This document shows positions 38,178 to 63,631 of a DNA stretch of 64,000 nucleotides, one piece after another. The position numbers were made by a program, and so were the translations under genes. Source of the DNA: Mobula hypostoma (taxonomy: Eukaryota). The stretch covers positions 101,992,001 through 102,056,000 of the forward strand of contig NC_086097.1 in assembly GCF_963921235.1 (NCBI RefSeq). Reading direction: 5' to 3'. Below the pieces are notes generated by a model. That model was not told where the DNA came from and did not search any database. It worked only from the letters and a program-made list of their open reading frames with translations. Every line of letters begins with the position of its first letter. Position 1 is the first letter of the stretch.

Positions 38178-41100
38178 TTACATTAAATGAAAATATCGAA
38201 TAAAAGGTCCCCAAATCTGTTCAAATTTAAATGAAGAATCATAAAGGTTACTTCTAATTTTCTCCAGATTCAAACATAAAATCGTCTGAGAAAACCAAAA
38301 AAAGGTAGTTGGAGCATTAAGCTCTTTCCAATGTTGTAAAATACATCTTTTCGCCATTAAAGTAAGAAATGCAATCATTCTACGGGCTGAAGGGGAAAGA
38401 TTACTAGAAATTTTAGGTAGTCCAAAGATAGCAGTAATAGGGTGAGGAGAGATATCTATATTTAATACCTTAGAAATAATATTGAAAATATCTCTCCAAA
38501 AAGTTTCCAAAGTAGGGCAAGACCAAAACATATGAGTTAAAGAGGCTATCTGCCCCGAACATCTATCACAGAAAGGATTAATATGCGAGTAAAAACGCGC
38601 TAACTTATCTTTGGACATATGTGCTCTATGAACCACTTTAAATTGAATTAGGGAATGTTTAGCACAAATAGAGGAAGTATTAACTAATTGTAAAATCTGC
38701 CCCCAATCATCCACAGAAATGGTAAGCCCCAATTCCTGTTCCCAATCTACCCTAATCTTATCAAATGGAGCTTTCCTAAGTTTCATAATAATATTATAAA
38801 TCATAGCCGATGCACCTTTCTGACATGGATTAAGGTTAATTATCGAATCTAAAATATATATAGGAGGAAGCATTGGAAAGGAAGAAAGTATAGTACTTAG
38901 GAAATTTCTAACTTGTAAATATCTAAAAAAATGTATTCTTGATAAGTTATATTTATTAGATAATTGTTCAAAAGACATAAGGGAACCATCTAAAAATAAA
39001 TCCAAAAACCGTAAAATACCCTTAGTCTTCCAAGTTTGAAAAGCGCGATCCGTAAAAGAGGGAGGAAAAAATATGTTACCTAAAATAGGAATCGCTAACC
39101 CGAATTGATTAAGATCAAAAAATTTTCTGAATTGAAACCAAATGCGCAAAGCATATTTAACTATCGGGTTAGAGACCTGCTTAAGACGTTTCGAATCAAA
39201 AGGAAGAGAGGAACCTAAAATAGAACCAAGTGTATAACCCTGAACAGATTGTAATTCCAATGCTACCCATTTAGGAATAGATAGTATGTCCCGGTCAAGT
39301 AACCAAAATTTCATATGTCGAATATTAATAGCCCAATAATAAAATCTAAAGTTAGGTAATGCTAAACCTCCATCTCTCTTAGCTTTCTGTAAATGTATTT
39401 TACCCAGTCTCGGATTCTTATTCTGCCAAATAAATGAAGAAATTTTAGAGTCAACTTTATCAAAAAAAGATTTAGGAACGAAAATTGGTAATGCCTGAAA
39501 CACATATAAAAATTTTGGCAAAAAAAACATCTTAACTGCATTAATACGACCAATCAAAGTTAAATATAAGGGAAACCATTTAGATGAAAGTTGAGTAATA
39601 TGGTCTATTAATGGTAAAAAGTTAGTCTTAAATAAATCTTTATGTTTACAAGTAATTTTAATCCCAAGATATGAAAAGTAATTATTAATCAATTTAAATG
39701 GAAATTTATAATATAAGGGAAGATGTTTATTAATCGGAAAAAGTTCACTCTTACTAAGATTTAATTTATAACCTGAGAAAAGACCAAATTGTGCTAATAA
39801 CTCTAAAACAGCAGGAATGGATCTCTCAGGATTAGAAATATATAAAAGTAAATCATCAGCATAGAGTGATAATTTATGGGACTTTAATCCCCGAGTTATC
39901 CCAGTAATATTTGAAGATTCTCGAATAGCAATTGCAAGAGGTTCTAATGCAATATCAAATAATAGGGGACTAAGAGGACAGCCTTGTCGAGTACCACGAA
40001 AGAGAGGAAAAAAAGGTGAGTTTAAGGAGTTAGTACGAACCGAGGCTACAGGGGAGTGATATAACAGTTTAATCCAGGATATAAATTTCAAGCTAAAATT
40101 AAACATTTCAAGCACCTTAAATAAATAAGGCCATTCTACTCTATCAAAAGCTTTCTCGGCATCTAAAGAAATAACACACTCAGGAACATTTTGTGAGGGA
40201 GTATAAACGATATTTAACAATGTACGAATATTATAAAAAGAGTAACGACCTTTAATAAAACCCGTTTGGTCTTCCGAAATAATAGAAGGAAGTACTTTTT
40301 CTAGTCTATTTGCTAATAACTTAGAAAAAACTTTAGAATCAACATTTAATAAAGATATTGGTCTATAAGATGCACATTGAGCAGGGTCTTTATCCTTCTT
40401 TAGTATTAAAGAAATTGATGCTCTATTAAAAGATTCCGGAAGTTTACCAAGTTTCAAAGAAGCCTCAAAAACCTTATAGAGCCAAGGAATCAATAAAGAA
40501 GCAAAACATTTATAAAATTCAACGGTAAACCCATCAGGGCCAGGAGCTTTCCCCAGATTCATAGAAAAAATAACATTCTTAATCTCATCCATTGTAATGG
40601 AAGTATCTAATAAAGAAGACATATCCTGTGAAATCAGAGGGAAGTCTAACTTATCTAAAAAATCATTCATATATTTAGAATCTCGAGGAGACTCTGATTG
40701 ATATAAAGAAGAATAAAAATCACAAAAGGTTTGATTAATCCCCACATGATCCAATATCAATCGATCATTTTGGTTATAAATCTGATTGATTTGAGATTTA
40801 ACATAATTAGATTTCAATTGATTAGCCAGCAGCTTGCCAATTTTATCACTGTGAACATAAAAATCACTTCTTGTTTTCTTTAATTGGTTTACAATCGAGG
40901 ACGAGAGTAGTAAACTGTGTTCCATTTGAAGTTCAGTTCTTTGTTTGTATAGCTCCTCAGAAGGAGCCATAACATATTTCTTATCAATTTCTTTAATCTT
41001 GTCCACAATTACCATCTCCTCCTGCTTCTGTTTCTTCCTCAAAGCAACGGAATACGAAATAATCTGACCCCGAATATAGGCTTTAAAAGTGTCCCAAAGA

Positions 41101-41954
41101 GTGTTAACCGAAATATCTTCTGTATGGTTAATTGTAAAAAAAAGCTCAATCTGTTCATTCATAAAATTAACAAAGTCCGAGTCCTGAAGCAACAGCGAAT
41201 TAAAACGCCATTGTCTATTGTTTGGTATATTGGCCATAATTTTAATAGAAAGCTTAAGTGGAGCATGATCCGAAATGGTTATAGAATCATAATCACATTT
41301 AATCACTGAAGGAATGAGACGAGAATCAATGAAAAAATAATCAATTCTTGAATAGGAATGATGAACATGTGAAAAGAAGGAAAAATCTTTTTCCTGAGGA
41401 TGCAGAAAACGCCAAATGTCCGTCGACCCAGAATCAGAAAGGAAAAAATTAATCAAATTTGCAGATTTATTAGGTAAAGTCCGTAAAGGAGCCGAACGGT
41501 CCAAAGCTGGAGATAAACAGGTATTAAGATCTCCGCCCCAAATCAATGAAAACTCGTTCAAATTCGGAAACTGATCAAACAATGATTTATAAAATTCCGG
41601 ACAATCCATATTAGGAGCATAAACATTAACCAAAACTACTTTTTTATTAAATAATAAACCACTAACCAATAAAAATCTACCATTCGGATCAGAGATAATA
41701 TCCTGTTGTATAAAAGTAACTGAGGAGTCTATAAAAATAGAGACGCCTCGAATCTTAGCATTGGAGTTCGAATGAAATTGTTGTCCCTTCCAAAATTTGA
41801 AAAAACGTAGTCTGTCCCCCCTCCGTACATGGGTCTCTTGTAAAAATAAAATTTGTGCTTTAAGTCTCCGGAACACTTTAAAAACTTTTTTCCTTTTAAT
41901 AGGATGATTAAGACCATTAGTATTCCAGGAGACAAAATTAATAATAGACTCCAT
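38178..41954 (-). CDS. L1 ORF2p (APE endonuclease, reverse transcriptase, C-terminal CCHC), 1258 aa from MESIINF
   Basis: Uninterrupted frame with SWNTNGLN, LQETH, GGDLN, SRIDY, SDHAP, RGTRQGCPLSP, LYADD and CDRC...THMFWSC. Confidence 0.96.
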   Translation of the reverse strand: MESIINFVSWNTNGLNHPIKRKKVFKVFRRLKAQILFLQETHVRRGDRLRFFKFWKGQQFHSNSNAKIRGVSIFIDSSVTFIQQDIISDPNGRFLLVSGLLFNKKVVLVNVYAPNMDCPEFYKSLFDQFPNLNEFSLIWGGDLNTCLSPALDRSAPLRTLPNKSANLINFFLSDSGSTDIWRFLHPQEKDFSFFSHVHHSYSRIDYFFIDSRLIPSVIKCDYDSITISDHAPLKLSIKIMANIPNNRQWRFNSLLLQDSDFVNFMNEQIELFFTINHTEDISVNTLWDTFKAYIRGQIISYSVALRKKQKQEEMVIVDKIKEIDKKYVMAPSEELYKQRTELQMEHSLLLSSSIVNQLKKTRSDFYVHSDKIGKLLANQLKSNYVKSQINQIYNQNDRLILDHVGINQTFCDFYSSLYQSESPRDSKYMNDFLDKLDFPLISQDMSSLLDTSITMDEIKNVIFSMNLGKAPGPDGFTVEFYKCFASLLIPWLYKVFEASLKLGKLPESFNRASISLILKKDKDPAQCASYRPISLLNVDSKVFSKLLANRLEKVLPSIISEDQTGFIKGRYSFYNIRTLLNIVYTPSQNVPECVISLDAEKAFDRVEWPYLFKVLEMFNFSLKFISWIKLLYHSPVASVRTNSLNSPFFPLFRGTRQGCPLSPLLFDIALEPLAIAIRESSNITGITRGLKSHKLSLYADDLLLYISNPERSIPAVLELLAQFGLFSGYKLNLSKSELFPINKHLPLYYKFPFKLINNYFSYLGIKITCKHKDLFKTNFLPLIDHITQLSSKWFPLYLTLIGRINAVKMFFLPKFLYVFQALPIFVPKSFFDKVDSKISSFIWQNKNPRLGKIHLQKAKRDGGLALPNFRFYYWAINIRHMKFWLLDRDILSIPKWVALELQSVQGYTLGSILGSSLPFDSKRLKQVSNPIVKYALRIWFQFRKFFDLNQFGLAIPILGNIFFPPSFTDRAFQTWKTKGILRFLDLFLDGSLMSFEQLSNKYNLSRIHFFRYLQVRNFLSTILSSFPMLPPIYILDSIINLNPCQKGASAMIYNIIMKLRKAPFDKIRVDWEQELGLTISVDDWGQILQLVNTSSICAKHSLIQFKVVHRAHMSKDKLARFYSHINPFCDRCSGQIASLTHMFWSCPTLETFWRDIFNIISKVLNIDISPHPITAIFGLPKISSNLSPSARRMIAFLTLMAKRCILQHWKELNAPTTFFWFSQTILCLNLEKIRSNLYDSSFKFEQIWGPFIRYFHLM

Positions 41955-42676
41955 AAATCCTAAAGTCAACCCATAACAAGGAGGATTGACAATAGGCGCG
42001 ACCCACAAACCCGGAGAGGAAACAGAACATACAAAAGATACCGGGGAAAAGGACGCAACCAATACTTCAATAATGTATATAGCCCAAAGAGAAACAAACT
42101 AAAACGTGAAGCCCCTCCCACCGCCCCCCACCCCAGGACCCCAAGGCGAAATCTAAAGCAGACCCGCCAGAAAGAAGCAAGCGCTAAAACTACCCCCATG
42201 ACTTCCGGTATACGCTCCCTAAAAAAAAGGTATAAATATGAAAAGGATCAGCTAATTGTAAAACAGTAAAAAAAAATAAGTAAAAAAAAGTTAGCTCAAT
42301 TAAAATACACACAGAACAGAACAAAAGCCGGAAAGTATATATTAAAAAAAAACCACAATAAACCTCAAACTCATGAATAGACACAGCAACAAAAAAAATA
42401 GGATTATTAACATAAAATGATTATAAAAAGCAAAACAGAATAAAATTTAAAAAAAACTACAAAATTTAAGGCCGCACAGGAAATACGTAAGATGACAAAA
42501 GGGAAGTAACCACCCAGAATCCCCTGGGAAAAGAAAGAAATGACGCAGTTAAAAAGAAAGTTTAGCAGCCATATTAAGAAATCGAAAGTAAACTTTTCTG
42601 CCCAAATAGGGCACAGAAAAGTTAAAACCAACCAATTCACAGCCTCCGATCAACGGAGAAAATTAAAAAAAGGCAA

Positions 42677-43576
42677 TTAAGATGTTGAAGATGAAAGTTG
42701 ATCCAGATAACTCTGGGCATCCGATGGAGAATCAAAAAAACGAAGAGCTCCATCTAACATGCGAATCCTTAGACGTGCAGGGTACAGCAGCGCTGGTCTT
42801 AAATCCATCTTATAGAATTCCGACATCACGGATCTGTAACGGACCCGTTGGTCCCAAATTGGTTTACTGAAATCTTCCACGAATCGGAACTTAAGATCCG
42901 AAAAATCAATGAAACCTTTAGATCGAGCGAATCGAAACAGTCTCTCCTTGTCTTGAAAGTAATGAAAACGTAAGATAACATGCCTAGGTCTATCTGACCT
43001 AGACGAGTATGATGGGATTCTGTGAACACGATCCAGTAGCGGTGGTTGGTCAGGAAATACAGTAGGGAATGCATCTTTTAAAAGTTGGGAGAAATATTTC
43101 ATAGGGTTGTTAGCTTCCACGGCTTCCCTGACGCCAATCATTCGTAAATTCTGCCGTCGCATTCTAGATTCCAAGTCAGAGTTTTTAAAAGTCAAAAAGT
43201 CAAGTTTCTTCTTCATTACATTAATTGTTTCTTCGACTTTCCCCATCTTAAGCTCACTTTGTTGCGCGGATTTTTGAAGACCAGATATAGCCGACTGATG
43301 TTCCGCAATACATGTTTGCATCTTATCAATTAAATCGGCAATTTTCTGGAACTTAGTTGAGATTTCCATATGAATCAGGTCTTTAACAGAGCCCATAATT
43401 TCTGTACGAATCATCTCCCTAACAGAGGTTGAAATTTCCCTCTGAATTAACTCCGATATAGCTTTCAAAGTCACCGGTGATTCAGTCGGAGGGAGATCCG
43501 TAGCTTTCGGTTTAACCGGAGGTTTACCATCCTTGCCGTCTTTCCCGTTCTTAGACATAGCCGATCTCAGTATCAT
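42677..43576 (-). CDS. L1 ORF1p (coiled coil + RRM + CTD)
   Basis: 299-aa open frame with DLESRMRRQNLRMIGVRE, LDRVHR, RPRHVILRF and LLYPARLRI. The start may be the second Met. Confidence 0.92.
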   Translation of the reverse strand: MILRSAMSKNGKDGKDGKPPVKPKATDLPPTESPVTLKAISELIQREISTSVREMIRTEIMGSVKDLIHMEISTKFQKIADLIDKMQTCIAEHQSAISGLQKSAQQSELKMGKVEETINVMKKKLDFLTFKNSDLESRMRRQNLRMIGVREAVEANNPMKYFSQLLKDAFPTVFPDQPPLLDRVHRIPSYSSRSDRPRHVILRFHYFQDKERLFRFARSKGFIDFSDLKFRFVEDFSKPIWDQRVRYRSVMSEFYKMDLRPALLYPARLRIRMLDGALRFFDSPSDAQSYLDQLSSSTS

Positions 43577-44528
43577 CCAATTGTCAGAGAATTCAGTTTA
43601 ATTCAAAGTATTGTAAAAATTGATGCCTTAATAGTTAATTAAAGTATAGCTGACCATAGAGAGAAAAAACTCAGAGGTAATGGAGCGAGTCAAGAACGCG
43701 ACTTCACTCCATGAGCGCTACCGGAAGTCTCCCCCCCATTCCTCAATTCCACCCAAATAGCCTTCCTAGATGAGCCCTCTAATCCATCCTGCCAGAGCAC
43801 CTCTGTAATATTTTCTCTGACAAGCAATGCAACACCTCCCCCTCTTGTCCCTCCGATTCTATCACACCTGGAGCAACGAAATCCAGGAATATTTAGTTAC
43901 CAATCTTACCCCTCCTGCAACCATGTTTCACTAATAGCTACCACATCATACTTCCAGGTATCAATCCATGCTTTAAGCTCATCCAGCTTTCTTATAATGC
44001 ACCTAGCATTAAAATAAATGCATTTAAGAAATTTACCACCTCTTACTCTCTGTTTGTCACTAACGGTGCAAACAACTTTACTATTTTCTTTTTCTTCCTT
44101 CTCCACTACATCTGTTCCTACACTCTGGTTCCGCTCCCCCCTTGTATCTAGTTTAAATCCACTGGAGCCTCTCAAGCAAACCTACCTGCAAGAGTATCTG
44201 TCCCCCTCCAGTTCAGATGTAAACCGTCCCGCCGGAACAGGTCCCACCTTCCCTGGAAAACCTCCCAAGGTATCTATAAATCTGAAGCCCTCCCTTCTGC
44301 ACCATGTCTTCAGCCACGTGTTGATCTGCACTATCTTACTATTTCTAAACCCGCCTGCACGTGGCACTGGTAGCAATCCTGAGATTGCTATCCTGGAGGT
44401 CCTGTCCTTTAACTTGGCATCTAACTCCCTAAACTCACCTTTCAGGACCTCCTCACTCTTTCTACCCACGTCATTGGTCCCTACATGGACCACGACATCT
44501 GGCTGCTCATCCTCCCTCTTGAGAATAC

Positions 44529-45369
44529 TGTTACGTACCCCGTAACTGGGTTGCCAAACCAGCAGAAATGGATCACTCAGTTGGAGTCTGGAGTACTAGA
44601 ATTAAGAAAGTTTTATTAAAGAAACAAGCAACATAGTAATCGAAAGGGTAATAAATGCAACAGTTCAGTGATGATAAACACACATGTGCACAGCATTAAG
44701 ATAACAGCATCAATCAAGCTCTATCGTTGTCTAGGGGTTAAATGACCAAATTCAAAATGACTCAAAGTTCAGTTCGCAGTAATCGTTGCCATGGCGATGG
44801 ACAAGGTGGGGAAGAGAGACATAGAATAGGAACAACTCATCATTCAGCACAGCTTCACTCACAGACCAGCGAGATGGCTCACAAACAGCATTTGGGCGGG
44901 TCCTTGGTGATGTCACCTGAGGTCACCGACTGTGACCCCTCCTCCAGATGCGGTCGATCCTCTGCAGTGAACCCGGCACCCAGGCAAGGGCGGACACACA
45001 CCGGGTTCCCGCTGATCGTACCTTTCCACCCTGTGCGTTGTCCGGTTCTTCTCACCACTCGTGAGAAGCGCACCGCTTCCAGGGTCTCGTTACCTCGGGT
45101 GGCGTGTGTGTCTGTCTTAGCGAACCTGTCCCTTTTTATCCCCCTGCTGGGGTATCGCCTGTCCATCACTTCAAACAGTTCAGGGCTCAAAGGGGGGAGC
45201 CGCTCCAGACAGCTCTTCCTCCCACATCCCTTCATTACACATCTCCAGACGCTGCTCCATTGTTCCTTATCTCTCCTTCCCCTGAGGGCAGGTGGCAGAC
45301 CAACTGCTGATGCCACTGATGCTAGCCCAGGCCAGCAAACATCTTAATTTTATGTGTATTCTCGTAACA
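44529..45369 (-). repeat. 3' LTR of the Gmr1-type element
   Basis: Direct repeat of 48470-49310; only one mismatch was spotted by eye. Confidence 0.95.
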
Positions 45370-45538
45370 CTTCCCCCCTTTAAGGATTTTTACCGGGAGG
45401 TAAAAATTACAAACATGACTACATTATCTGATACATACACAATATACATCTTTAACAGTTATTTAGCTAATACAGAGAATTTGAAATTGTCAACACCTTG
45501 ACAGACAATCACATTTTCTGTTCCTTTTACACGTGTTA

Positions 45539-48370
45539 TTAATAATCCCTTAGACCAGGCTCCAACTCAGCAAACTTCATAGTGGCCAAAAACACTGATG
45601 AATTGCGACCAATGTAACCTCTCATTTGGTTTTGTCCCGGACCACAACAACAAGGGTCGTCCCATTCCGACTCAATTTTCCCTCGCAAGGGCTTAGTAGG
45701 AGGGGGACGGGTATTGACCGCAGAGTTATTGCAAAACTTCCTGCAGTACCCCACCATCTCCAAAAGCCTTCTGAGGGCCCTCTTGTCTGTCGGGGTTGGG
45801 AGGTCAGCGATAGCCTGCACTGTAGCTTGCATCACTGCCAGCTGCCCCTGTGTCACCACAATTCCCAGGTAAGTGACATTCGTGTGGCCGAATTCATTTT
45901 TTCCAAGGCTCACTATCACGCTGGCTTCAGACAGCCGTATTAAATTGCCAATACACACCTCTGTGTTCATCAGCCCTTTAGTCACTGAATTACTCGAAAA
46001 ATATGGGTGTTGTTTGCTTGGCTGCCCTATTGTAACAGACATAACCCAACGTCCCAGTTCTTTGCAGTTCCTCGGGACAATCAAACACATGGGTGCGAGT
46101 CGTTTAATTACTCCTTCGGGGATTAAGGGAGAGACCTTATCAGTAGACCTGGCCAAAACAATAGCCTTCTCCCATCTGACCGATCCCATCCTAATCTTTT
46201 CAAAATGGTTTTTTCCTCTTATCAAGGGGCCCCTAGCTTCATTGATTTCCACGCTAACACCGACTAGGTTTGTTAGCATATCAAAAGCCGGTGACCGTGT
46301 CAGTTCGCGTCGGTCATGATCAATAACATTTTTCCCCCTGGGCAGCCGGTAACTCTCTTTCATGATTCCACCAACTGTTTCCTCCAGCACCGCAAAATGT
46401 CCACCGGGGGGTACCTCGTGGGCCATGTTAAAAACCTCATCCCCGTAACTCTTTTGCACCACCCCCCACTCCTCATCTGCGGGTACTGTACTTGATTTCC
46501 CTTTCTTCCTTAGCACTTCCTCATCCGCACAATAGCCTACTAGTTCCCTTGTCAAGGCTGTGTCAGAGAGAGCTGTCTCGGCCAAAACCATCAGCCCCTC
46601 GTCTCGCTCCTGCGTCTGCACAAATTCTTTCCTGGCTACTGCTACGTCCGTCCCAGCTCCCTCACTACCTCTTATCTCACTACACCCTGTCTCATACAAG
46701 GTTGGCAGAAATGTTTCAGCCAAATTCACCATCGCGGGCGGGGCCTCCATGCTGGCAGGCTGACCCGTCAATCTCACGACTGGGAACACGATTCCTCCGG
46801 CGATGTCATTACCGAGCAAGACTTCCACGTCTTTCATCGGTAATTCGGACCTCACCCCGATCGTGACTAGTCCAGAGACCAGGTTGCTCTGTAAATGTAT
46901 CTGGTGCAAAGGGACTGACTCTGTCCCTTCCCCAACACCTTTGACCTCTACCTCCCCAGTCTGGGTCTCTGAGCTAAACTCTAATACACTCTTCAGTATT
47001 AGTGACTGACACGCTCCCGTGTCTCTCCAGATCCGCACTGGAACTGGTTTTAACCTCTTTTTCACTGACACCAGTCCGGCCGAGATAAACCTCTCGCGCC
47101 CTTCCTGGACTTTTTCAGACCTGTCCTTCCCTAGCGGTTCGCTTAACAGCTCGATACAGCCATTCAAAATTTCCACTTTTCCTTTCCCCGTCTCCTTCCT
47201 TGGGGCAAAGCACCTGGACGCAAAGTGTCCGGCTTTCCCACAATTATAACAGACGACCCCAGGAGACTTCCTACCAGACTGCTCCCGGTCTGCCTTATCC
47301 TTTTCACTAGTCCCCGGCTTACTTTCTGACTTTTCCGGTGGACTCTCCCCGCCGTCCTGACTACCCTTCTGGTAGCCTTTACTCGGGGCAACCTTCATTT
47401 TATGCGTCAACGCATACTCATCCGCTAACTTAGCAGTTGCGGCTAACGTGGCTGCCTCTTTCTCATCGAGGTAGGGTCTCATACCCTCAGGGACACAACC
47501 TTTAAACTGCTCAATCAGAATCAGCTGCAGCAGTCTGTCATAATCCCCCTCTACCCCTTTCGAGGCGCACCAACGCTCACAATATGTTTGCATCTCGCGA
47601 GCAAACTCCAAATACGTGCGGTCCCACCGCTTCCTCGCATTCCGGAATCTCTGCCGGTATGCCTCCGGGACCAACTCATAAGTCCTGAGGATGGCCTCCT
47701 TCACCACCTCATACTTCTGGGCATCTTCCGGGGATAAAGCGGAGTAAGCTTGTTGGGCTTTCCCTTTCAGTACACTCTGAAGTAAAACAACCCACTTATC
47801 CCTCGGCCAGTCCTGACTTATAGCTACTTTTTCGAAGTGGAGAAAGTACCGATCCACATCGGTATCGTCAAATGGGGGAACCAGCCTAACCTCCTGGGTC
47901 GCCCGGAACCCTCCACCTTGGTTCGGCACGAGCCCCTGCTCGGCCCTTATCTTTAACTTCTCCAGCTCAAATTCCCTTTCCCTCTGTTTCTCCTCTCTCT
48001 CCAACTGTCTGTCCCTCTCTCTCTCTTCTCTCTCCAACTGTCTTTCTCTCTCTTGCCTTTCTACCTCTCTCTCTTTCTCTTCGTGTTCTAACTGCCGTAC
48101 CCGGAACTCGTGCTCGAGTCTCAGTTTTTCAAGCTGTACCTGTACTGCGTCTCCAGCAGGTTTTTCAACAGACACCTCCCCCAGCTCACCTTGGGGAAAC
48201 ACACCTTTAGATACATAGTGCTCTACAATAGCTCTATGTATCTCCTCTCTCCTCATTGTCGACTTCACCTTAGAAAGATTCAACCGTTTGGCCACAGCTA
48301 ACAATTCCGATTTCCTGGCATCCTCTAATGCCTCCAAGGTCGGCGCCTTTATAAATTCCTCAACCTCCAT
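45539..48370 (-). CDS. 943-aa Gag (SCAN-like capsid, CCHC) - protease - vestigial Pol polyprotein
   Basis: YELVPEAYRQRFR...LILIEQF, CYNCGKAGHFASRC, RDTGACQS...LLGND, then only fragments of integrase and RT. Confidence 0.9.
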   Translation of the reverse strand: MEVEEFIKAPTLEALEDARKSELLAVAKRLNLSKVKSTMRREEIHRAIVEHYVSKGVFPQGELGEVSVEKPAGDAVQVQLEKLRLEHEFRVRQLEHEEKEREVERQERERQLEREERERDRQLEREEKQREREFELEKLKIRAEQGLVPNQGGGFRATQEVRLVPPFDDTDVDRYFLHFEKVAISQDWPRDKWVVLLQSVLKGKAQQAYSALSPEDAQKYEVVKEAILRTYELVPEAYRQRFRNARKRWDRTYLEFAREMQTYCERWCASKGVEGDYDRLLQLILIEQFKGCVPEGMRPYLDEKEAATLAATAKLADEYALTHKMKVAPSKGYQKGSQDGGESPPEKSESKPGTSEKDKADREQSGRKSPGVVCYNCGKAGHFASRCFAPRKETGKGKVEILNGCIELLSEPLGKDRSEKVQEGRERFISAGLVSVKKRLKPVPVRIWRDTGACQSLILKSVLEFSSETQTGEVEVKGVGEGTESVPLHQIHLQSNLVSGLVTIGVRSELPMKDVEVLLGNDIAGGIVFPVVRLTGQPASMEAPPAMVNLAETFLPTLYETGCSEIRGSEGAGTDVAVARKEFVQTQERDEGLMVLAETALSDTALTRELVGYCADEEVLRKKGKSSTVPADEEWGVVQKSYGDEVFNMAHEVPPGGHFAVLEETVGGIMKESYRLPRGKNVIDHDRRELTRSPAFDMLTNLVGVSVEINEARGPLIRGKNHFEKIRMGSVRWEKAIVLARSTDKVSPLIPEGVIKRLAPMCLIVPRNCKELGRWVMSVTIGQPSKQHPYFSSNSVTKGLMNTEVCIGNLIRLSEASVIVSLGKNEFGHTNVTYLGIVVTQGQLAVMQATVQAIADLPTPTDKRALRRLLEMVGYCRKFCNNSAVNTRPPPTKPLRGKIESEWDDPCCCGPGQNQMRGYIGRNSSVFLATMKFAELEPGLRDY

Positions 48371-48469
48371 TTCTGCTGTTTGTCTTTTCTTTCTTTCGGG
48401 AATTTTAACCCAATCAATTTACTCCGTCCCAAATTTAGCGTTCAAAATCGCGGACGAGAACCCCACTTA

Positions 48470-49310
48470 TGTTACGTACCCCGTAACTGGGTTGCCAAAC
48501 CAGCAGAAATGGATCACTCAGTTGGAGTCTGGAGTACTAGAACTAAGAAAGTTTTATTAAAGAAACAAGCAACATAGTAATCGAAAGGGTAATAAATGCA
48601 ACAGTTCAGTGATGATAAACACACATGTGCACAGCATTAAGATAACAGCATCAATCAAGCTCTATCGTTGTCTAGGGGTTAAATGACCAAATTCAAAATG
48701 ACTCAAAGTTCAGTTCGCAGTAATCGTTGCCATGGCGATGGACAAGGTGGGGAAGAGAGACATAGAATAGGAACAACTCATCATTCAGCACAGCTTCACT
48801 CACAGACCAGCGAGATGGCTCACAAACAGCATTTGGGCGGGTCCTTGGTGATGTCACCTGAGGTCACCGACTGTGACCCCTCCTCCAGATGCGGTCGATC
48901 CTCTGCAGTGAACCCGGCACCCAGGCAAGGGCGGACACACACCGGGTTCCCGCTGATCGTACCTTTCCACCCTGTGCGTTGTCCGGTTCTTCTCACCACT
49001 CGTGAGAAGCGCACCGCTTCCAGGGTCTCGTTACCTCGGGTGGCGTGTGTGTCTGTCTTAGCGAACCTGTCCCTTTTTATCCCCCTGCTGGGGTATCGCC
49101 TGTCCATCACTTCAAACAGTTCAGGGCTCAAAGGGGGGAGCCGCTCCAGACAGCTCTTCCTCCCACATCCCTTCATTACACATCTCCAGACGCTGCTCCA
49201 TTGTTCCTTATCTCTCCTTCCCCTGAGGGCAGGTGGCAGACCAACTGCTGATGCCACTGATGCTAGCCCAGGCCAGCAAACATCTTAATTTTATGTGTAT
49301 TCTCGTAACA
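48470..49310 (-). repeat. 5' LTR of the Gmr1-type element
   Basis: Followed on the minus strand by the PBS and the gag ATG. Confidence 0.95.
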
Positions 49311-50532
49311 ATACCGAGAACTCGATCCGAGATATCGCGGACCTTGGCACCAGGGAGGCAACAGACCATCCGGGATTCTCGATCTCTTCCACAGAACCTC
49401 TTATCTGTCCCCTTAACTACCGAATCCTCTATCACTACTGCTCTCCTCTTTTCCCTCCTTCCCCTCTGAGCGGAGGGTCCAGTCTTCATGCCAGAGACGC
49501 AACCACCTCAACTTGTCCCTGGTAGGTCGTCCCCATCAACAGTATCCAAAATGATATACTTATTATTGGTAGGAACAGCCACAGGGGTGCTCTGCTCATT
49601 CTGTCTATTCCCCTTCCCTCTCCTGACAGTCATCCAGCTACCTGTCTCCTGACTCTCAGGGGTGACTATCTCCCTCTAACTCCTCTCTGTTTCTGCCTCT
49701 GCCTCACGAATGATCCAAAGTTCATCCAGCTCCAGCTCCAGCTCCAGTTCCCTAACTCAGTTTGTCAGGAGCTGCAGCTGGATGTACCTTTTACAGGTGT
49801 AGTCATCAGAGACGATTGTGCTAACCCTGACTTCCCACATCCTGCAAACGGAACGCTCAACTGCCCTAACTGCTGCCTCCATTACCTACTCCTAAGGTAA
49901 TTAAATTAAAGGAACTTACCCAGCCTTACCTCACATGGAGTGAAGCTCGTTCTTCAGCCTCTGCTCGCTGAAGCCTCTCGAGCCAAAGCCTTCCTACTCT
50001 GTATCCCTCTACTCCGTCACCCGCTCCGTTAACCTGCTCACTTTTAAACTCTCCCGCTGCCTCACGGTCCGACTTTCACGCGCTCGTGCAGTTGTGCCCC
50101 GTTCAACTGCCGAAGAAATGACTGACCCTCGTCAATCTGCTCGCTTTTAAACCTTCCCGCTGCCTCACGGTCCAACTTCCACGCACTTGCACAGTCGTGC
50201 CCTGTTCAACTGCTGAAGTCAACCATGTCACTGGGCTCTCTCTCAATCCTGTACTCTGATTTTTATTTGAGATAGTTTGCTACAGTGGTATCATCTGCAA
50301 ACTGATTGTACCTTGGAAATGAAAGAACATTGTTCTAACCACCATTTCTCAGAAGTGCTAGTTTGGTCATTTTGGTGGTGTTTTGCGGACCTGAAGGCCT
50401 TGATTTCATTTTTTTTTAAAAAAATCTTTGTTTCTCAACCAGTAGTGCCGCTTTAAGTAATGAAAATCAGTGCAAAGAAGGGTATGTGCAGTGTTCTCTA
50501 AAATCTGAAATATTCCTTCCCTTGTTTTTCAG

Positions 50533-54843: not shown

Positions 54844-55702
54844 GTAGGCTAATACCCAAGATAGAGCCAACTAAATTTATAACCCTCTGCAGCTTCTTTC
54901 GGTCCTATGCAATAGCCCCCCATACCAGACAGTGGTCCAGCCTGTCAGAATGCTCTCCACGGTACACCTATAGAAGTTTTTGAGTATATTTGTTGACATA
55001 ACAAATCCCTTCAGACTCCTAATAAAGTATAGTTGCTGTCTTGCCTTCTTCATAACTGCATCGATATGTTGTGTAATGTTCCGTTATATTGGCTCGTGTA
55101 TGTCTAGGGGAAATCCAGCCCAGCATCCGCCTCCACACTCCCCACAGGGTCGGTTGCCACCCGAGTCAATCACAACATCAATCATCAGCCAGCACACCCA
55201 GTAAATTTTAACAAATACACTTTATAGATATTACTAATTCTATGACATTAATATACATTTGATACAGAGAGGAAAGTAATGAAAAAAAAAGGCGCCAACA
55301 CTTATCAAAGTCCAAGTTCTTTGCGCGCTATGTTGGAGCTCAATTCGACTTCAGACGACCACCCGAATTCCGTCGACTCACGGCTCGGGACCACCCTGAG
55401 TGATCGACCGGAGCCTCTCCACACGTCCGCGGTCTTCCTCGTCTCTCCTCCGACTCCCCGCCAAAACTCAGTCCACAGTCATATCATACAGCATGGTATC
55501 CGAAAACAAAATAATACATAACCACCCATTGGCTAATAGAACCCTGTTATCTCATTTTAAAGTAAAACAAACTGTTAGCGCAAACTCTCTTCAGCGTTAA
55601 AGCACAACAAAGCCGCGTTCCCCAAATCAACATAACAAAGTCGCCATTTTAAATGTAACAAAAGAAAGACCCCGTACACTCTCCCCCCCCCACCACAAAA
55701 AG

Positions 55703-58700
55703 TCATGCCCTCATGACGTTAACAGAGTTCACCAGTGCTCCTTGTAAAACACAAAACCCAACCCAGGTGCATAAAGCAGTGACATAACTTTGCAGGGCAG
55801 TAGAGATCACACCCTGCTCTCCCGGCGCTATATAAGTCAGTCTCTCTGGGGGATGCCTACTCCTCTGAGGCCTCTGTACTTCCTCTGCTGACTCTCCCTG
55901 TTCAGACACCCCAGTTGACCCCTCGGGCCTATCTGTCGGACCTTCCCCCTCACCGGGACCCCTCTGCCCCTGTGAGCCCTCTGGCTCAGGTTCCAGCTCC
56001 ACCCTCTCCTCCCCCAATCCCGACTGTAATACAGGCGGCTCTGCAACACCCTCCCCCAATCCCGGCTGTAATACAGGCGGCTCTGCAACACCCTCCCCCA
56101 ATCCCGGCTGTAATACAGGCGGCTCTGCAACACCCTCCCCCAATCCCGGCTGGAATACAGGCGGCTCTGCAACACCCTCCCCCAATCCCGGCTGTAATAC
56201 AGGCGGCTCTGCAACACCCTCCCCCAATCCCGGCTGGAATACAGGCGGCTCTGCAACACCCTCCCCCAATCCCGGCTGTAATACAGGCGGCTCTGCAACA
56301 CCCTCCCCCAATCCCGGCTGTAATACAGGCGGCTCTGCAACACCCTCCCTCAGTTCCCCTAACTCAGTGAGGGAAGGGCCAAGAGTCTCTTCTCCCGGCA
56401 CCGGGGAATCAGCAAACGGAAGCAGGTACCACACGTCTGACTCATCATCTTCCGATGACGTATCCCTTCTCGAGGTGGGGACTGGCCCCGTTCTCTTCGC
56501 AGCGGGCTCTCCCGCGCCCCGCGCCCTCGCAGAGTCCTCGTAATAGGAGTAAACTCCCATTCGGGCTCTGGGTCCATCTTCACCTCTCGACCCAGAGGCA
56601 ACAGGTGGTTCTGATGGAGTACCTTGACAGACCCCTGCCCACCCTCAGGTCTCACCCGGTAAACCGGGAGATTCAGCATCTGACTCTCCACCACATAGGG
56701 GGTGGCCGCCCAATGGTCCGCCAACTTGTGCTTACCAGGTAGTCCTAAATTCCGGATAAGGACTCGGTCTCCCGGCAATAGCTGGACGAACTTTACCTTC
56801 TGATCATATCTCTTCTTATTCCGCTGGTTCTGCTTGGTGGCTGCCGCCTCAGCCAACTCGTACGCCCTTTTCAACTCTCTACTCATATCAGACATATACT
56901 TCAGACATGGCTTCGAAGGTATTTCCCCCGCTTCAGTCCCAAAACGTAGATCAATGGGCAACCTCGCTTCCCATCCGAACATCAGATAATAGGGCGAGTA
57001 CCCCGTAGCATCATTGCGCGTACAATTGTAACAGTGAACCAAATGGGCGATGTGCCAACTCCACTTACTCTTCTGACCAATCTCCAAAGTGCCGAGCATG
57101 TCCAGCAGGGTCCGGTTAAACCTCTCGGGTTGAGGATCACCCTGCGGGTGATAGGGGGTGGTTCTGGATTTCTCAACTCCAAGCATACCCAGTAATTCAT
57201 GTATAAGCCTGCTCTCGAAGTCCCGTCCCTGATCACTATGGATCCGCCGGGGAAGGCCATAATGAACAAAGTACTTCTCCCATAACACCTTCACCACTGT
57301 AGTCGCTTTCTGATCCTTAGTAGGAAAAGCCTGCGCATATCTAGTGTAGTGATCCGTGAGGACCAAGACATTGGCGATGTTGCTGGTGTCTGGCTCAATA
57401 GACAGGAAATCCATACACACCAGGTCCATGGGTCCCGCACTCTGCAAGTGGGAGAACGGGGCCGCCTGCACAGGCAGGGTCTTCCTCCTGACGCAACAAC
57501 TACAGGTCTTTCTTCAACCTCCTTCCTCATCCGGGGCCAGTAAAACCGGTCCTTGACTAATCCACAGGTCTTCTCTACCCCTAAGTGCCCGGAATCATCA
57601 TGTAGAGCCTGGAGCACAGTCTTCCGATACTTCTCAGGCATGACCAGCTGCCAGCGCCGGGGGGTGGTCCGGGGGCGACGTGACCTTGTTCAGGACGTGG
57701 TTCTTCAGCTTCAACCGGGGCCACTCCTTCAGTAGTAGGGGAACGGAGGCATGTTTCACCTTCTCCACCTGCCCCATATCACCCTGGCTAACCGCGTACC
57801 AGATAGTGCCAATGCTCGGGTCATCACGCTGAGCCGCCTCCACTTCCTGGGGACTCAACTCCGGCAGCTGCCTGTTCCGCAGAGCAGTCAAATTACAGTA
57901 AACAGTGGGTAGCGCGTCATCGTCAGCCCCCAGTTGATCTACTGCCCGATCCGTTCCCATCGGGGCTCCTACTTCCCCGTCGCTCCCAACTTGACACATG
58001 TCCTTTACTCCCTGGGCGGGGACACTCTTTCACTCCTCGGCCGTGCCCGATTTGTCGTGCGCCCGACGAGACAGGGCATCTGCATCGATGTTCCGACTCC
58101 CCGGGCGGTACTTCAGGCTGAACTCATAGGCAGACAAGGCTGCTAACCACCGGTGCCCAGTAGCATCCAGCTTCGCCGAGGTCAGGATATAAGTGAGGGG
58201 GTTGTTATCAGTTCTCACCTCAAACTGGGCCCCATATAGGTAGTCACTCAACTTGTCCATCACCGCCCATTTCAACGCCAAGAACTCCAGCTTGTGAGTG
58301 GGATAGTTTCTCTCAGATGATGACAAACTCCGACTGACAAACGCTACCGGCCTCAATCCGTTGCCCTGTTCCTGGTACAGGACAGCCCCCAGACCGTCGT
58401 GACTGGCATCAGTGTGTAGAACATACGGCTTCCAGGGATCAGCAAATGCCAACACTGGGGCCTGCGTCAGCACCCTTTTTAGAGGTTGGAACACCTCCTC
58501 ACATTGAGCATCCCACCTCAATCCAAAAGGCTCTCCCGGGTTCAAGTATCCTCCTACCTCCGACCCTCAGTCTCCCTTCCTCCTCCTCCCCACAGGTGGA
58601 TAGCCACACAGCAGCTGGTTCAATGGATGACTCATTTTCGCATATCCTTTCACGAACCGCCGGTAATATCCGCAAAACCCCAAAAACGAGCGTAAGGCGC

Positions 58701-60435
58701 TCACCTTCTGAGGTCTCGGCCAGGTGGTGACTGCGGCTATTTTATCCGGATCGGTGGCCACTCCATTTCGCGAGATTATGTGCCCAACATAACTGACTGA
58801 CGTCTTGCAGAACTGACATTTATCCAGGGAAAGTTTTAACCCTTCCTCCTTCAGCCGACTCAGCACCTTCAGCAGCCGCTCCTCATGTTCCTCCAACATA
58901 GAACCAAACACTATCAGGTCGTCCAGGTACACCAACACCTCCAGCAGGTTCATATCCCCCACCGTCCTCTCCATGAGCCGCTGGAAGGTGGCTGGGGCCC
59001 CCGAGATGCCTTGGGGCATTCGTTCGAACTGGAAAAACCCCAGGGGGCAGATAAAGGCTGTCTTCTCCTTATCAGTCTCGCTCATTGGAATCTGGTAATA
59101 ACCACTCCGCAAACCCAATACACTGAACCACTGTGCACCACTCAGACAGGCCAAGGCATCTTTCACCCTCGGGACCGTATATTGGTCGGGAACAGTGCGG
59201 CGGTTCAGGGTCCTATAGTCCACGCACATGCGTACCTTCCCATTTTTCTTCCTTGCCACCACTATGGGGGACGCATAGGGGCTTCGGGACTCCGCAATAA
59301 TCCCTGCGTCTTTCAACTGCGCACATCTTCCACCTCTGCCGGGGCCAACCGCCGCGACCTCTCCCTAAACGGGGTGTCATTTGTTACCCGACTGGTGTGC
59401 CGAGTGCTCTTGGAACATCCCACATCAAACTCGTCCTGAGAAAAGACATCCCCTAACTTCAGCATCTTCTCCACCAGCCTGCTCTTATACGCCGGCGGTA
59501 CAGGGGAGTTTTCAAAATTAAAGGCCTCCTCGGTCAGCCGCCCTCCGTTTCCCTCCAGTGGGCTTCACGGGGGCGCTGGACATCACCATCACCGGGAACA
59601 AGTGCGCCAGGGGCATCCCGCGCTTAAAGGTGATCTCCCTCTCCGTTATGTTCCTTACCATCACCCCCATCTGCCGTGCCTGTACAGCTGAGGGCCTCTG
59701 CAATTCAGGTCTCACCAGCGCCCCAGCCGGGAACCAGGATTCCCTTTCCAGGTCGTCGGGGGCGTCTACTAGCAGGGCCTCGCCTGGCGGTAATCCGGGG
59801 AATCTGGGGGTCCCCATCACTAATGCCGCCTCCCCTGGCCGTATCACCTTAGGCCTCGCCTGAGTGTGCACCACACCGTCCCTCGTTTGCACTCAGGATC
59901 CAGCCCCTGGGGGTCACTCACTCCTTCGTACACCGCTTGGAACACGAGGTGTACCGAGAGGGTCTCCAAAAAGTTCTCCCCCCCCCTTCTTCTTACAGGC
60001 TCCCAAGAGCCATCGCACCAGAGGGGAGTTAGTCCCCACCAACAGGGCAGCACCACCGGTCTCCACCGGGTCCGGACAAACCAACACCAGCGTCTCAAAG
60101 GCTTCCGATACTCCCACATCTCCCTCCGAAAATTCCAATCTCACTGACAAGTATCCATCGTACGGGTAATCACCATCACTTATGCCCCAAATCTCCAATG
60201 CTTTAAACGGAGTGACTGCCAAATGTTTCAGATATTTGTTGTAGAACAACCGGTACTGTAAGGTAACCTGCGACCTGGTGTCAAGGACGGCTTTTGCAAA
60301 GATTTCCTCTATCCGTAGGGACACGCTGGAACGGGGTCCCACCAGTCCATCAGGAATTTGGGCTTGTTCTTTCTGGGGTTCCATAGCGGTTTTCTGGGAA
60401 CGTGTTCCTCTGGAGACTCCAGTCCATTCCCTCAC
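55703..60435 (-). pseudogene. Gypsy pol (protease - RT - RNase H - integrase), with multiple frameshifts
   Basis: LDTRSQVT, YLDDLIVF, LHTDASHDGLGAVL, LHDDSGHLG, IHSDQGRDFES and PERFNRTL, spread over several frames. Confidence 0.92.
56008..56349. repeat. 42-bp minisatellite, 8 copies (GVAEPPVLQPGLGE) at the pol C-terminus
   Basis: Unit CACCCTCCCCCAATCCCGGCTG(T/G)AATACAGGCGGCTCTGCAA, with near-identical copies. Confidence 0.95.
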
Positions 60436-61748
60436 TGAGCCTCTCCTAAGTTTCTCGACACCTCTCCCTTCTTAGTGGCCCAGGGGCCCTCTCCCCTCGG
60501 CGCATCTCGTCTCTCACAATCCTTCCGCAAGTGGCCAGCTTCCCCACAGCAGTAGCACGCCCCCGGCCACTCACATTCCCGGCGGAAATGCCCCTCTCTC
60601 CCACAGTTATAGCACCCACTACTCGCCGCCTCTCTCCTCCCGATACGGCCCCCTGGAGACCCTTTGGATTTCTCTGGTCTCACCCCGACTACCACCTCCT
60701 GAACCGCTGAAGACCGTCCCTGAGGGTCCGAGCCCCCTGCTCGGCCCAAAGCACACTCCTCGGCCCGTACCTCTCGGATCAGCTGTCCGAATGATGGAGG
60801 GGGGCTCTGCTTAAATGACTGCCGTACACTCCAAGCCACCCTGTCATCCTCCCGGGAACCGCTACATATCTGGCTCATCCTTAACTCCGCCACTTCGTCC
60901 TCCTTCACTACCCCTCGTCGAAGCAACCCCGTAAGCTTTCCTTCCAGCCTGAAAGCATAGTCTGAGAACTTTTCCCCTCTTCTCTGCCCCACCTGTTGAA
61001 ACTCCGCTAAATGCCGCCAGGGACCCCCTGACAGTCCAAACACTTCCTCCAAAGCGTCCAAACACTCCGATAGGGAAGCCAAGGGATGTGCCGCTCTCAG
61101 ATCACGGACCACCCAGGCCGCCCCGCCCCTTAAGCTTTCCACCAATTGCTGTCTCTTTTCCTCATCCGAAACTGGCCACACCTCTAACAATTGGGATGTA
61201 TCTTCAACCCAGGTATCATAGTCATCCTCCCCTTCTGGGGTGGGCTTGGCTCCCGAGAAAATTCTCAGCTTCGGGCGGTGCCCCTCAACCCTTCTTGCCA
61301 GGGAGGTAATGGCAGCCGTTAACTCGGCAGTCTCATCCTGCCCATGGGGGCCGGGCCTGGCCAAACCTTCCCACTCCACACCTCCACCCCTGGCTACTGG
61401 CACCTCCCTTGGGGCCTCATCTAGCTCCTCCTCCTCCGGCAGCTCCTCACTTGCGTCCTCGGGGAGGGTATGGAGACCCCACGGCCCCGCCTCCCCCGGG
61501 GCATGGACTGTCGCTGGTAGTTCCAACGTCATGACGTTGGCACTCGTCCGCACCAACATCCAGCTAGACGCCGGTTCTTTCCCACCCCTTCTAGCTACAA
61601 GTTCTACCTGCCCGATACCTTTAATCCAACTCAACCCTCGCACCAGCACCTCTGCCGGAATGCGATAATTGACCCCGCTTACCACACACGCATGATTCAC
61701 CGGTACCTCCTCCAATTCACACCAACTTACAATCTTATCTCGATCCAT
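60432..61748 (-). CDS. Intact PNMA/Ma-like Gag with two CCHC knuckles
   Basis: SWCELEEVPVNHACVVSGV, GEAGPW, KLRIFSGAKPTPEGEDDYDTW, VSDEEKRQQLVESLRGGA, CLDALEEVFG, CYNCGREGHFRREC and CYCCGEAGHLRKDC. Confidence 0.9.
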   Translation of the reverse strand: MDRDKIVSWCELEEVPVNHACVVSGVNYRIPAEVLVRGLSWIKGIGQVELVARRGGKEPASSWMLVRTSANVMTLELPATVHAPGEAGPWGLHTLPEDASEELPEEEELDEAPREVPVARGGGVEWEGLARPGPHGQDETAELTAAITSLARRVEGHRPKLRIFSGAKPTPEGEDDYDTWVEDTSQLLEVWPVSDEEKRQQLVESLRGGAAWVVRDLRAAHPLASLSECLDALEEVFGLSGGPWRHLAEFQQVGQRRGEKFSDYAFRLEGKLTGLLRRGVVKEDEVAELRMSQICSGSREDDRVAWSVRQSFKQSPPPSFGQLIREVRAEECALGRAGGSDPQGRSSAVQEVVVGVRPEKSKGSPGGRIGRREAASSGCYNCGREGHFRRECEWPGACYCCGEAGHLRKDCERRDAPRGEGPWATKKGEVSRNLGEAQ

Positions 61749-63631
61749 CTTCACACCACTTACCACAACGACAAGTACAACTTTCCCGAGAAGTCCAAAT
61801 CCAGGACGGTAGCCCCCACTTGTAACGTTCAGTTATATTGGCTCATGTATGTCTAGGGGAAATCCAGCCCAGCACATGCCTCAACACTCCCCACAGGGTC
61901 GGTTGCCGCCTGAATCAATCACAAACATCAATCATCAGCCAGCACACCCAGTAAATTTTAACAAATACACTTTATAGATATTACTAATTCTATGACATTA
62001 ATATACATTTGATACAGAGAGGAAAGTAATGAAAAAAAAGGCGCCAACACTTATCAAAGTCCAAGTTCTTTGCGCGCTATGTTGGAGCTCAATTCGACTT
62101 CAGACGACCACCCAAATTCCGTCGACTCACAGCTCGGGACCACCCTGAGTGATCGACCGGAGCCTCTCCACACGTCCGCGGTCTTCCTCGTCTCTCCTCC
62201 GACTCCCCACCAAAACTCAGTCCACAGTCATATCATACAGCATGGTATCCGAAAACAAAATGATACATAACCACCCATTCGCTAATAGAACCCTGTTATC
62301 TCATTTTAAAGTAAAACAAACTGTTAGCGCAAACTCTCTTCAGCGTTAAAGCACAACAAAGCCGCATTCCCCAGATTAACATAACAAAGTCGCCATTTTA
62401 AATGTAACAAAAGAAAGACCCCGTACAGTTGTGACCAGGTAAGATCCTCAGAGACCCTGACACACAGGAACTTGAAACTGCTCACTCTCTCCACTTCTGA
62501 TCCCTCTATGAGGATTGGTGTGTGTTCCTTCATCTTACCCTTCCTCAAGTTCACAATCAGCTCTTTCGTCTTACTGACATTGCGTGCAAGGTTGATGCTG
62601 TGACACCACTCCACTAGTTGGCATATCTCGTTCCTGTACGCCCTTTCATCTCCATCTGAGATTTTACCAACAATGGTTGTATCATCAGCAAATTTATAGA
62701 TGCTATTTGAGCTATACCTAGCCACACAGTCATGGGTATTTAGAGAGTAGAGCAATGGGCTAAGCACACACCCCTGAGGTGCACCAGTGTTGATCGCTAG
62801 CGAGGATATGTTATCACCAATCTGCACAGATTGTGATCTTCCAGTAGGAAGTTGAGGATCCAATTGCAGAGGGAGGTACAGAGGTCCAGGTTCTGTAACG
62901 TCTCAATCAGGATTGTGGGAATGTTGGTATTAAATGTTGAGCTATAGTCGATGAACATCATCCTGACATAGGTGTTTGTGTTGTCCAGGTGGTCTAAAGC
63001 CGCGTGAAGAACCATTGAGATTGCATCTGCAGTTGACCTATTGTGACAGTAGGCAAATTGCAATGGGTCCAGGTCCTGCTGAGGCAGGAGTTCAGTCTAG
63101 TCATGATCAACTTCTCAAAGCATTTCATAACTGTAGATGTGAGTGCTCGCAGGTGATAGTCATAAAGGCAGCTCACATTATTCTTCTTAGGCAGTGGTAT
63201 AATTGTTGCTTTTTTGAAGCAAATGGGAACTTCTGCTCGTAGCAGTGAGAGGTTGAAAATGTCCTTGAATGCTCCCGCCATTTAGTTGGCACAGGTTTTC
63301 AGAGCCTTACCGGGTACTCCATTGGGACCTTCTGCCTTGCAAGGGTTCACTGTCTTTAAAGACAGTCTAACATCGGCCTCTGAGACATAGATTTCAGGGT
63401 TATCAGGTGCAGCAGGGATCTTCACAGCTGAAGTTAAAAGCAGGCATAGAAGGCATTGAGTTCATCTGGTAGTTAGGGTGTTTCAGGACGTGATAGAGTG
63501 AGAGGGATTAAAGAGGGAGAGGTGGCGTTACTAATCGGGAAAATGTCTTGGCAGTGCTCCATCGGTACAGACTGGAGAACTTGTCTAGTGAGGCATTATG
63601 GATGGAACAGTAATAAGAGAGGTATTACCAC

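Follow-up and report, generated by a model that had tools for sequence, protein, structure and literature searches.

The window analysed here is a 64,000-nucleotide stretch of the genome of Mobula hypostoma (NCBI RefSeq assembly GCF_963921235.1, contig NC_086097.1, positions 101,992,001 to 102,056,000). At 44529-49310 on its minus strand lies a retrotransposon with two 841-bp long terminal repeats (LTRs), a 4-bp target site duplication (TSD), a primer-binding site (PBS), a polypurine tract and a single open reading frame (ORF) of 943 aa, in which Gag and an aspartic protease (PR) are followed by a tail of Pol remnants (Table 1). We refer to this element and its copies as family A, which by domain order and capsid we class among the Gmr1-like elements. 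Comparison among copies demonstrates, at the level of sequence, that Gag and protease are under purifying selection, while the residues of the tail drift near-neutrally in a frame that is held open as its length shrinks.

A first-pass annotation made from the DNA alone had described near-identical LTRs, a TSD, a PBS and a polypurine tract around an intact Gag, with SCAN-like and CCHC domains, and a DTG protease. These features were borne out: the LTRs have TG...CA ends and differ at one position (44602/48543), the polypurine tract adjoins the 3' LTR, and Pfam analysis of the window protein returned SCAN (PF02023, aa 235-324, E 1e-12, 47.6 bits against a cut-off of 27) as well as zf-CCHC. The PBS is likewise present, with the correction that its sequence is a variant of the tRNA-Pro complement. 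A structure model built from 59 aligned sequences was confident for the Gag domains, with a high predicted local distance difference test score (pLDDT) at aa 1-60, 80-140 and 160-325, and for the protease, but for little of the tail, pLDDT being below 50 over most of aa 635-800 and 876-943. The top Foldseek matches of the model were retroviral proteases (E about 3e-3 to 1e-2), and no match of the whole model reached an E of 0.001 or below; matches from a PDB profile search were set aside, as they reflect intact relatives in the alignment and not the window protein. The closest named proteins are M. hypostoma gene models at about 80-98% identity, together with fragments from M. birostris. With the Cys pair and core of integrase (INT) deleted, and the reverse transcriptase (RT) and RNase H (RH) motifs mutated, the element does not belong among autonomous LTR retrotransposons.

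The 398-aa tail, which on its own has no Pfam family match, aligns block by block with an intact relative in the Gmr1 order, as had been proposed for these roughly 400 stop-free residues. About 390 of 990 codons remain relative to L062, a copy of the helper subfamily described below. The integrase deletion spans helper aa ~723-1026 and removed the Cys pair, the DDE core and the C-terminal domain, leaving the two His of the half-motif noted earlier; the RT fingers deletion corresponds to helper aa ~1129-1256, and further large deletions (18 codons past the YxDD segment; the connection and most of RNase H) are joined by smaller ones at codons 545, 559, 639 and 752. RT palm and thumb shards are present as annotated, although the YxDD segment proved to be mutated (YIDD to CIGN in 89/90 copies) and not deleted. 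The RNase H position reads YIGR in 80/90 copies, the protease motif RDTGA is intact in 85/90, and the alignment also confirmed an RNase H remnant past the stop. The long tail blocks up to codon 930 all lie in the ancestral frame, which was preserved through about 11 net indel events before codon 932, some of them by compensation: frameshift pairs of +4/-1 near aa 662-665 and +1/+2 near aa 886-891 were found, with a third, more tangled stretch near codons 771-781. The earlier statement that all deletions preserve frame therefore holds for the long blocks, and not for the compensated pairs or for a terminal 14-nt deletion. At the PR/INT boundary, an AVTR motif of the helper, which we take to be the integrase N-terminal cleavage site, was lost stepwise in family A (window 46736 region; P0003, P0004 and P0007), so that the tail may remain joined to the protease.

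Copy number, age and an intact helper subfamily

A tail-specific 24-mer taken from the integrase deletion junction matches the genome exactly at 1,416 places, an approach that under-samples old copies, and its reversed control at none; the deletions are thus common to the copies, and the structure is neither single-copy nor a product of decay after insertion. In a DNA search with the 3.1-kb internal part, 41 places matched most of it at 94-100%, and an ORF of at least 930 aa was unbroken in 25 of the 30 examined. Our family A sample comprises 92 loci on one contig (C1) from among the 1,416 matches, the window copy included. Both LTRs were found in 91 of these loci and full LTRs in 84, of which 74 are flanked by a matching 4-bp TSD; the LTRs of a pair diverge by a median of 0.35%, and 11 pairs are identical. 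The ORF is intact in 43 of 65 copies with LTR divergence below 1% versus 1 of 19 above 1%, suggesting that copies are born open and broken afterwards. Contigs of two other organisms (B and C) span the same deletion junctions and an M. birostris gene model has the family A PR/INT boundary, indicating that the lineage predates the present burst. The description of the element as very young is thus apt for the copy itself and not for its lineage, whose tail branch has a synonymous divergence (dS) of about 0.34. The PBS is polymorphic among copies L075-L165, where the variant with mismatches occurs in 62/91 and the exact 18-nt tRNA-Pro complement in 16/91, as expected if the site is sometimes recopied from the tRNA primer. 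Several further observations were made on these copies. Head-to-tail arrays of elements sharing LTRs reach six units spaced ~4 kb apart; many TSDs of L075-L165 appeared by eye, without statistics, to be palindromic or to alternate purine and pyrimidine (ATAT, CATG, CTAG, GTAC); and RefSeq models under the host gene names MACC1, PISD, UBE2G2 and PPM1Lb isoform X1 are made up mostly or entirely of the element ORF, reflecting either chimeric transcripts or misannotation.

A search with the integrase core recovered full-length elements with open frames of 1,550-1,580 codons, an autonomous relative of the kind that the first-pass annotation had suggested as a comparison. In L062, Gag, PR, INT, RT and RH are encoded in one 1,535-aa ORF with Pfam matches to Integrase_H2C2 (673-729), rve (750-845), RVT_1 (1162-1319) and RT_RNaseH (1408-1514), and all catalytic motifs lie in one frame from the start in 3 of the 11 helper copies checked. 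A helper-specific 24-mer gave 10 matches, against which the 1,416 of family A form only a rough ratio as the two 24-mers differ in variability. Identity between young family A copies and the helper is 97-98% in the LTR, about 98% in Gag, 88-89% in the protease and 78-86% in the shards, with dS of 0.014 for Gag, 0.27 for the protease and 0.45 for the tail. Three old copies have LTRs nearer to those of L166, an older full-length-type copy, and L118 has a helper-type protease. We read this as repeated refreshing of LTR and Gag by recombination with the current helper, which would in turn imply that the two RNAs are co-packaged in mixed particles. Integrase and RT/RNase H are likely borrowed from this small intact subfamily with the same LTRs, presumably by complementation, in support of the proposal that this is a recently mobile parasitic family with its own capsid and protease. 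A tandem pair of helpers was observed at L065.

Selection on Gag, protease and the reading frame

Variants found in at least three copies, which have passed through replication, were compared with singletons, which mostly arose after insertion, in 90 of the 92 loci (L111, with one LTR out of range, and L102, with a 4-kb internal part, were left out). Codons 86-145, which form a repeat, and those within 6 nt of an indel were excluded, and branch ratios of nonsynonymous to synonymous divergence (dN/dS) were obtained from two outgroups. This revealed that in Gag and protease the nonsynonymous/synonymous counts (N/S) fall from 206/118 in singletons to 48/64 in shared variants (p 1.5e-4), versus 200/76 and 64/33 in the tail (p 0.24), and that among shared variants the tail differs from Gag and protease (p 0.0009). 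Stop codons in Gag and protease number 0 against 64 synonymous variants when shared and 14 against 118 as singletons (p 0.006). Branch dN/dS is 0.25-0.27 for the protease and 0.78-0.84 for the tail (90% bootstrap 0.63-1.10; tail dS 0.34-0.36). By a rough estimate about 11 stops would be expected on the tail branch at the singleton stop rate, and none is fixed. Of the tail indels shared by at least three copies, 6 of 7 keep the frame, compared with 13 of 50 singletons (p 0.004), the sole shared frameshift lying at codon 913, 30 codons before the end. In-frame pieces of 27, 21 and 18 nt that old copies still carry have been lost in young family A clades, while near-end frameshifts are tolerated (fixed at codon 932, shared at codon 913), with the stop staying within ~170 nt of the LTR.

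The compensated pairs, the in-frame shared indels and the near-neutral residues together suggest that the frame, and not the residue sequence, is selected. The first-pass annotation had proposed selection either on the tail or on translating it, with a decoy or restriction role among the options; as the tail dN/dS is near 1, the tail-protein and decoy/restriction options are disfavoured and selection on translating the tail is favoured. It had also named freely frameshifted tails with dN/dS near 1 as speaking against selection, and of these two marks the dN/dS was found and the free frameshifting was not, frameshifts being depleted when shared.

A second collapsed family, which we call family B, was reached in the same genome through a stingray protein tail, and is older, non-autonomous and Gmr1-derived. 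Its LTR elements are about 5.4-5.5 kb long, and in the best copies in-frame Gag, PR, INT, RT and RH shards make up one frame of 1,065-1,110 codons; the junctions are unlike those of family A, and the capsid core, CCHC and DTG are missing. Among 26 copies, picked by score from 151 listed matches, there is no majority stop at any of 1,090 codons; shared N/S is neutral in the shards of Gag, PR and INT, with ratios of 0.8-1.4, and 8 of 11 shared indels are in frame, with 2 of the other 3 forming a net in-frame pair. The N-terminal Gag helices and coiled coil are kept in both families, while this Gag-N region drifts in family B (ratio 0.82). Family B is an independently collapsed replicate of the open-frame pattern. 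In three stingray proteins (P0015, P0020 and P0044), Gag-PR was seen to run in frame into a family-B-type collapsed Gag/PR tail as a long open fusion.

Feature coordinates and neighbouring elements

Table 1. Features of the element and of related loci (positions are those of the window unless a locus or protein is named).
Feature	Position	Strand	Remarks
TSD	left 44525..44528, right 49311-49314		4 bp, ATAC on the plus strand
5' LTR	48470..49310	-	841 bp; 97% identity (gaps excluded) to helper LTRs L061/L062
PBS	48447..48465	-	variant of tRNA-Pro complement, 4-nt spacer before; tRNA-Pro genes confirmed
Single ORF, Gag-PR-Pol shards	45539..48370	-	943 aa; ORF of at least 900 aa unbroken in 44/91 sampled copies
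Gag, aa 1-392	47195..48370	-	Pfam, structure model, evidence of purifying selection, dS 0.014 to helper
Gag N-terminal helical domain			followed by charged coiled-coil repeat
Charged coiled-coil repeat of Gag	aa ~86-145		variable in length
Capsid with SCAN-like C-domain	47668-47399	-
CCHC	47251-47210	-
Linker and aspartic protease	46736..47194	-	DTG at 47023-47015 (D450)
Integrase N-terminal shard	46307..46735	-	both His present; alignment to intact relative
INT/RT linker and RT N-terminal shard	45992..46306	-	contains codon 783 stop hotspot
RT palm/thumb shards	45650..45991	-	CIGN replaces YIDD at 45955-45944
RNase H shard, then 11 out-of-frame codons	45542..45649	-	TDH to IGR; out of frame after 14-nt deletion, codon 932
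Untranslated RNase H remnant and 3' UTR	45382..45538	-	stop 169 nt from 3' LTR (helper 120 nt)
Polypurine tract	45370..45381	-	abuts 3' LTR
3' LTR	44529..45369	-	841 bp; AATAAA 752 nt from LTR start
Family B loci	L217, L218, L219, L222, L225, L228, L233-L252
Head-to-tail arrays	L010, L013, L014, L125/L126; C50:12552186-12572722
Host-named RefSeq models with element ORF	P0001, P0009, P0127, P0132

The element appears to be inserted in ORF1, which we assume to be of an esterase-like type, of a CR1-type LINE (window 44182-44528 and 49311-49507); the LINE frame can be followed to either side of the TSD. A further LINE at 38178-43597 on the minus strand, presumably L1-type by its motifs, has neither of its two frames interrupted (306 aa, and 1,306 aa from stop to stop) and is probably young. 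Another Gypsy-type element, which is broken and has RT in its usual place ahead of integrase, lies at ~55700-61832, also on the minus strand; its integrase is followed by a tandem peptide repeat.

Explanations for the open tail and relation to known elements

The account we favour, with a confidence that stops at an even chance, is that family A is selected for Gag and protease and borrows its Pol enzymes, and that its tail stays open since transcripts carrying an early stop are lost to degradation ahead of packaging. Such an element keeps Gag and protease and would take integrase and RT/RNase H from the intact subfamily with the same LTRs, its RNA travelling with helper RNA in mixed particles. 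Its own RNA would have to be translated nearly to the end, as early-stop RNA would be degraded through a surveillance of long 3' untranslated regions (UTRs) of the nonsense-mediated decay type. The tail would then be a vestigial ribosome runway that can shrink only by in-frame steps, a shrinkage that still goes on. RNA surveillance is favoured as the agent because breaks are tolerated near the end, because family B stays open without a capsid, and because there is a precedent in Rous sarcoma virus, where premature gag stops are reported to lower unspliced RNA via Upf1 (PMC2925335, PMC5031192).

Surveillance could act together with co-translational cis-packaging, in which nascent Gag-PR, tied by the ribosome to its own RNA, joins helper particles and the tail serves as tether or timer. 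Put forward as the explanation, cis-packaging is the main rival to surveillance, but seems to us rather unlikely. It would account for the lack of shared loss-of-function variants in Gag and protease despite the 1,400 copies available as sources of Gag in trans, for the N-terminal Gag helices and coiled coil retained in both families, and for a tail that has not been deleted outright; the mouse intracisternal A-particle (IAP) 1Δ1 fusion, for which an idea of similar spirit has been proposed, is reported to act in cis (PMC6466679). However, the family B frame is open despite a collapsed capsid and a drifting Gag-N, and young family A copies are still losing tail length in frame, so that no fixed length seems to be needed. 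A function of the tail peptide itself, whether as a decoy binding helper INT or RT, a particle scaffold or a restrictor of the helper, we regard as improbable. The dN/dS point estimates for the INT-N and RT shards are below 1 (0.65-0.75), but every interval includes 1 and the branch also covers time spent as functional Pol; the RT shard has a shared N/S of 18/6, residues have been rewritten by compensated frameshifts, and the absence of a Pfam match points the same way. Similarly, pLDDT reaches 76-81 at aa 581-630 and 64-70 at aa 851-870, but these values may come from intact relatives in the alignment and elsewhere pLDDT is mostly below 50.

We give little credence to the idea that a few master copies are open by chance, in a burst too recent for decay and with no ongoing selection on the frame. 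The median LTR divergence, the frequency of a TAG stop at codon 783 (TAG783) and the lack of depletion of shared tail stops in the sample are all compatible with it; a tail branch of dS about 0.34 without a fixed stop largely refutes it, and both the ~11 net indel events to codon 932 that keep frame, some by compensation, and the repetition of the pattern in family B with different junctions also stand against it. Least credible of all is a domesticated host gene or host restriction factor, which is suggested by M. hypostoma RefSeq models that encode the ORF, some under host gene names. Against this, the copies are dispersed and number over 1,400, their LTRs near-identical and their TSDs fresh, and the fall in intact ORFs from young to older copies (43/65 to 1/19) follows a neutral post-insertion decay pattern; the few fixed copies, decayed LTRs and post-insertion purifying selection of a domesticated gag gene were not found.

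A number of results weigh against surveillance-driven maintenance of the frame. TAG783 has 74 exact matches and occurs in 3/90 sampled copies, versus a background CAG-to-TAG rate of 0.33%, and one carrier, L158, has identical LTRs. Carriers are scattered over the tail tree on four local backgrounds, with no single TAG783 clade found on that tree, and in 21 of 30 carriers the sequence downstream of the stop can still be read in frame as far as the normal end; a hotspot whose products are dead ends would fit this. CpG double deamination was rejected as its source, with 0 TA at 105 CpG columns. A few of the old carriers have rare variants in common (by permutation, p 0.027 for sharing in total and 0.20 for pairs, in an analysis without L118, L126, L193 and three duplicate loci), and this, together with the identical LTRs of L158, makes limited copying of truncated tails possible. 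When the tail is taken by itself, shared stops show no depletion (2 against 33 synonymous, singletons 8 against 76; p 0.72), and errors of assembly may be among the singleton frameshifts, of which 5 of 37 lie in homopolymers. With a stop placed right after the protease, the 3' UTR would measure just ~2.1 kb, and the last deletion, at codon 932, does shift the frame, the ORF stopping 11 codons on. In family B, the lower RT and RH ratios (0.45 and 0.28) look constrained, and a frameshift at codon 38 common to 3 copies is uncompensated. Lastly, bovine D-type elements, which are non-autonomous and without an ORF, are reported to be copied well (PMC10924933).

Should translation to the end nevertheless prove to be required, it would amount to a licence, acting in cis and of general reach, for the RNA of LTR elements in the germ lines of vertebrates. 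It is hard to demonstrate that translation as such is selected, as distinct from its protein product; ~1,400 young copies with a resident helper and family B offer a natural experiment, the frame being maintained as residues drift, with naturally broken copies as built-in controls. Long stop-free ORFs, some annotated under host gene names, need not encode a protein that is useful throughout. We tentatively suggest, at somewhat less than an even chance, that ray Gmr1 elements have repeatedly spawned parasites whose frame was kept purely as a translation runway over long evolutionary time, despite the collapse of all their enzymes and, in family B, of the capsid as well. Our search of the literature, which did not extend to Repbase/Dfam, most subscription papers or supplements, found no account of family A or of neutral-but-open Gypsy tails. 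Plant TR-GAG elements are non-autonomous LTR elements that retain Gag only, to which family A adds a selected protease and a long open Pol-shard tail.

Gmr1-like LTR retrotransposons are described as Ty3/mdg4-related elements with a SCAN-type capsid and PR-IN-RT/RH order (bioRxiv 10.1101/2025.03.03.638093) that are common in frogs (PMC4131045). The helper and the shard order of the window element share with them the same SCAN-type capsid, CCHC, protease and integrase before RT/RH, and LTRs, PBS, polypurine tract and TSD are likewise present; in contrast to them, family A has lost the INT core, the RT fingers and the Asp residues with which RT and RH catalyse, and is roughly a hundred times as numerous as its intact relatives. 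A defective form that dominates, shares its LTR ends with a competent form and carries an older central segment, as in family A, is also known from the endogenous retrovirus (ERV) pairs bovine ERVK[2-1-LTR] C/D, MusD/ETn and KoRV/recKoRV, although the bovine D-type is without an intact ORF where family A has one long open ORF (PMC10924933). There is a functional likeness to mouse IAP 1Δ1, a non-autonomous ERV in which one in-frame 1.9-kb deletion, which took out portions of gag and pol, created a single gag-pol fusion ORF; it is reported to need helper proteins in trans, to out-insert its helper and to depend on translation in cis (PMC6466679). Family A has both a shared gag-pol fusion ORF and a competent helper with the same LTRs, and would thus work like 1Δ1, a putative need for translation in cis being indicated only indirectly, by the depletion of shared loss-of-function variants. 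Membership in the retroviral IAP lineage is ruled out by the Gmr1 order and SCAN-type capsid. Unlike 1Δ1, family A is Gypsy-type, keeps the whole of Gag with a selected protease, and accumulated ~ten in-frame events and compensated frameshifts over a dS of about 0.34 with near-neutral residues. It would carry the IAP 1Δ1 case beyond a single deletion in the mouse to a Gypsy-type lineage of long standing, in a parasite that retains a protease of its own and renews LTR and Gag time and again from the helper.

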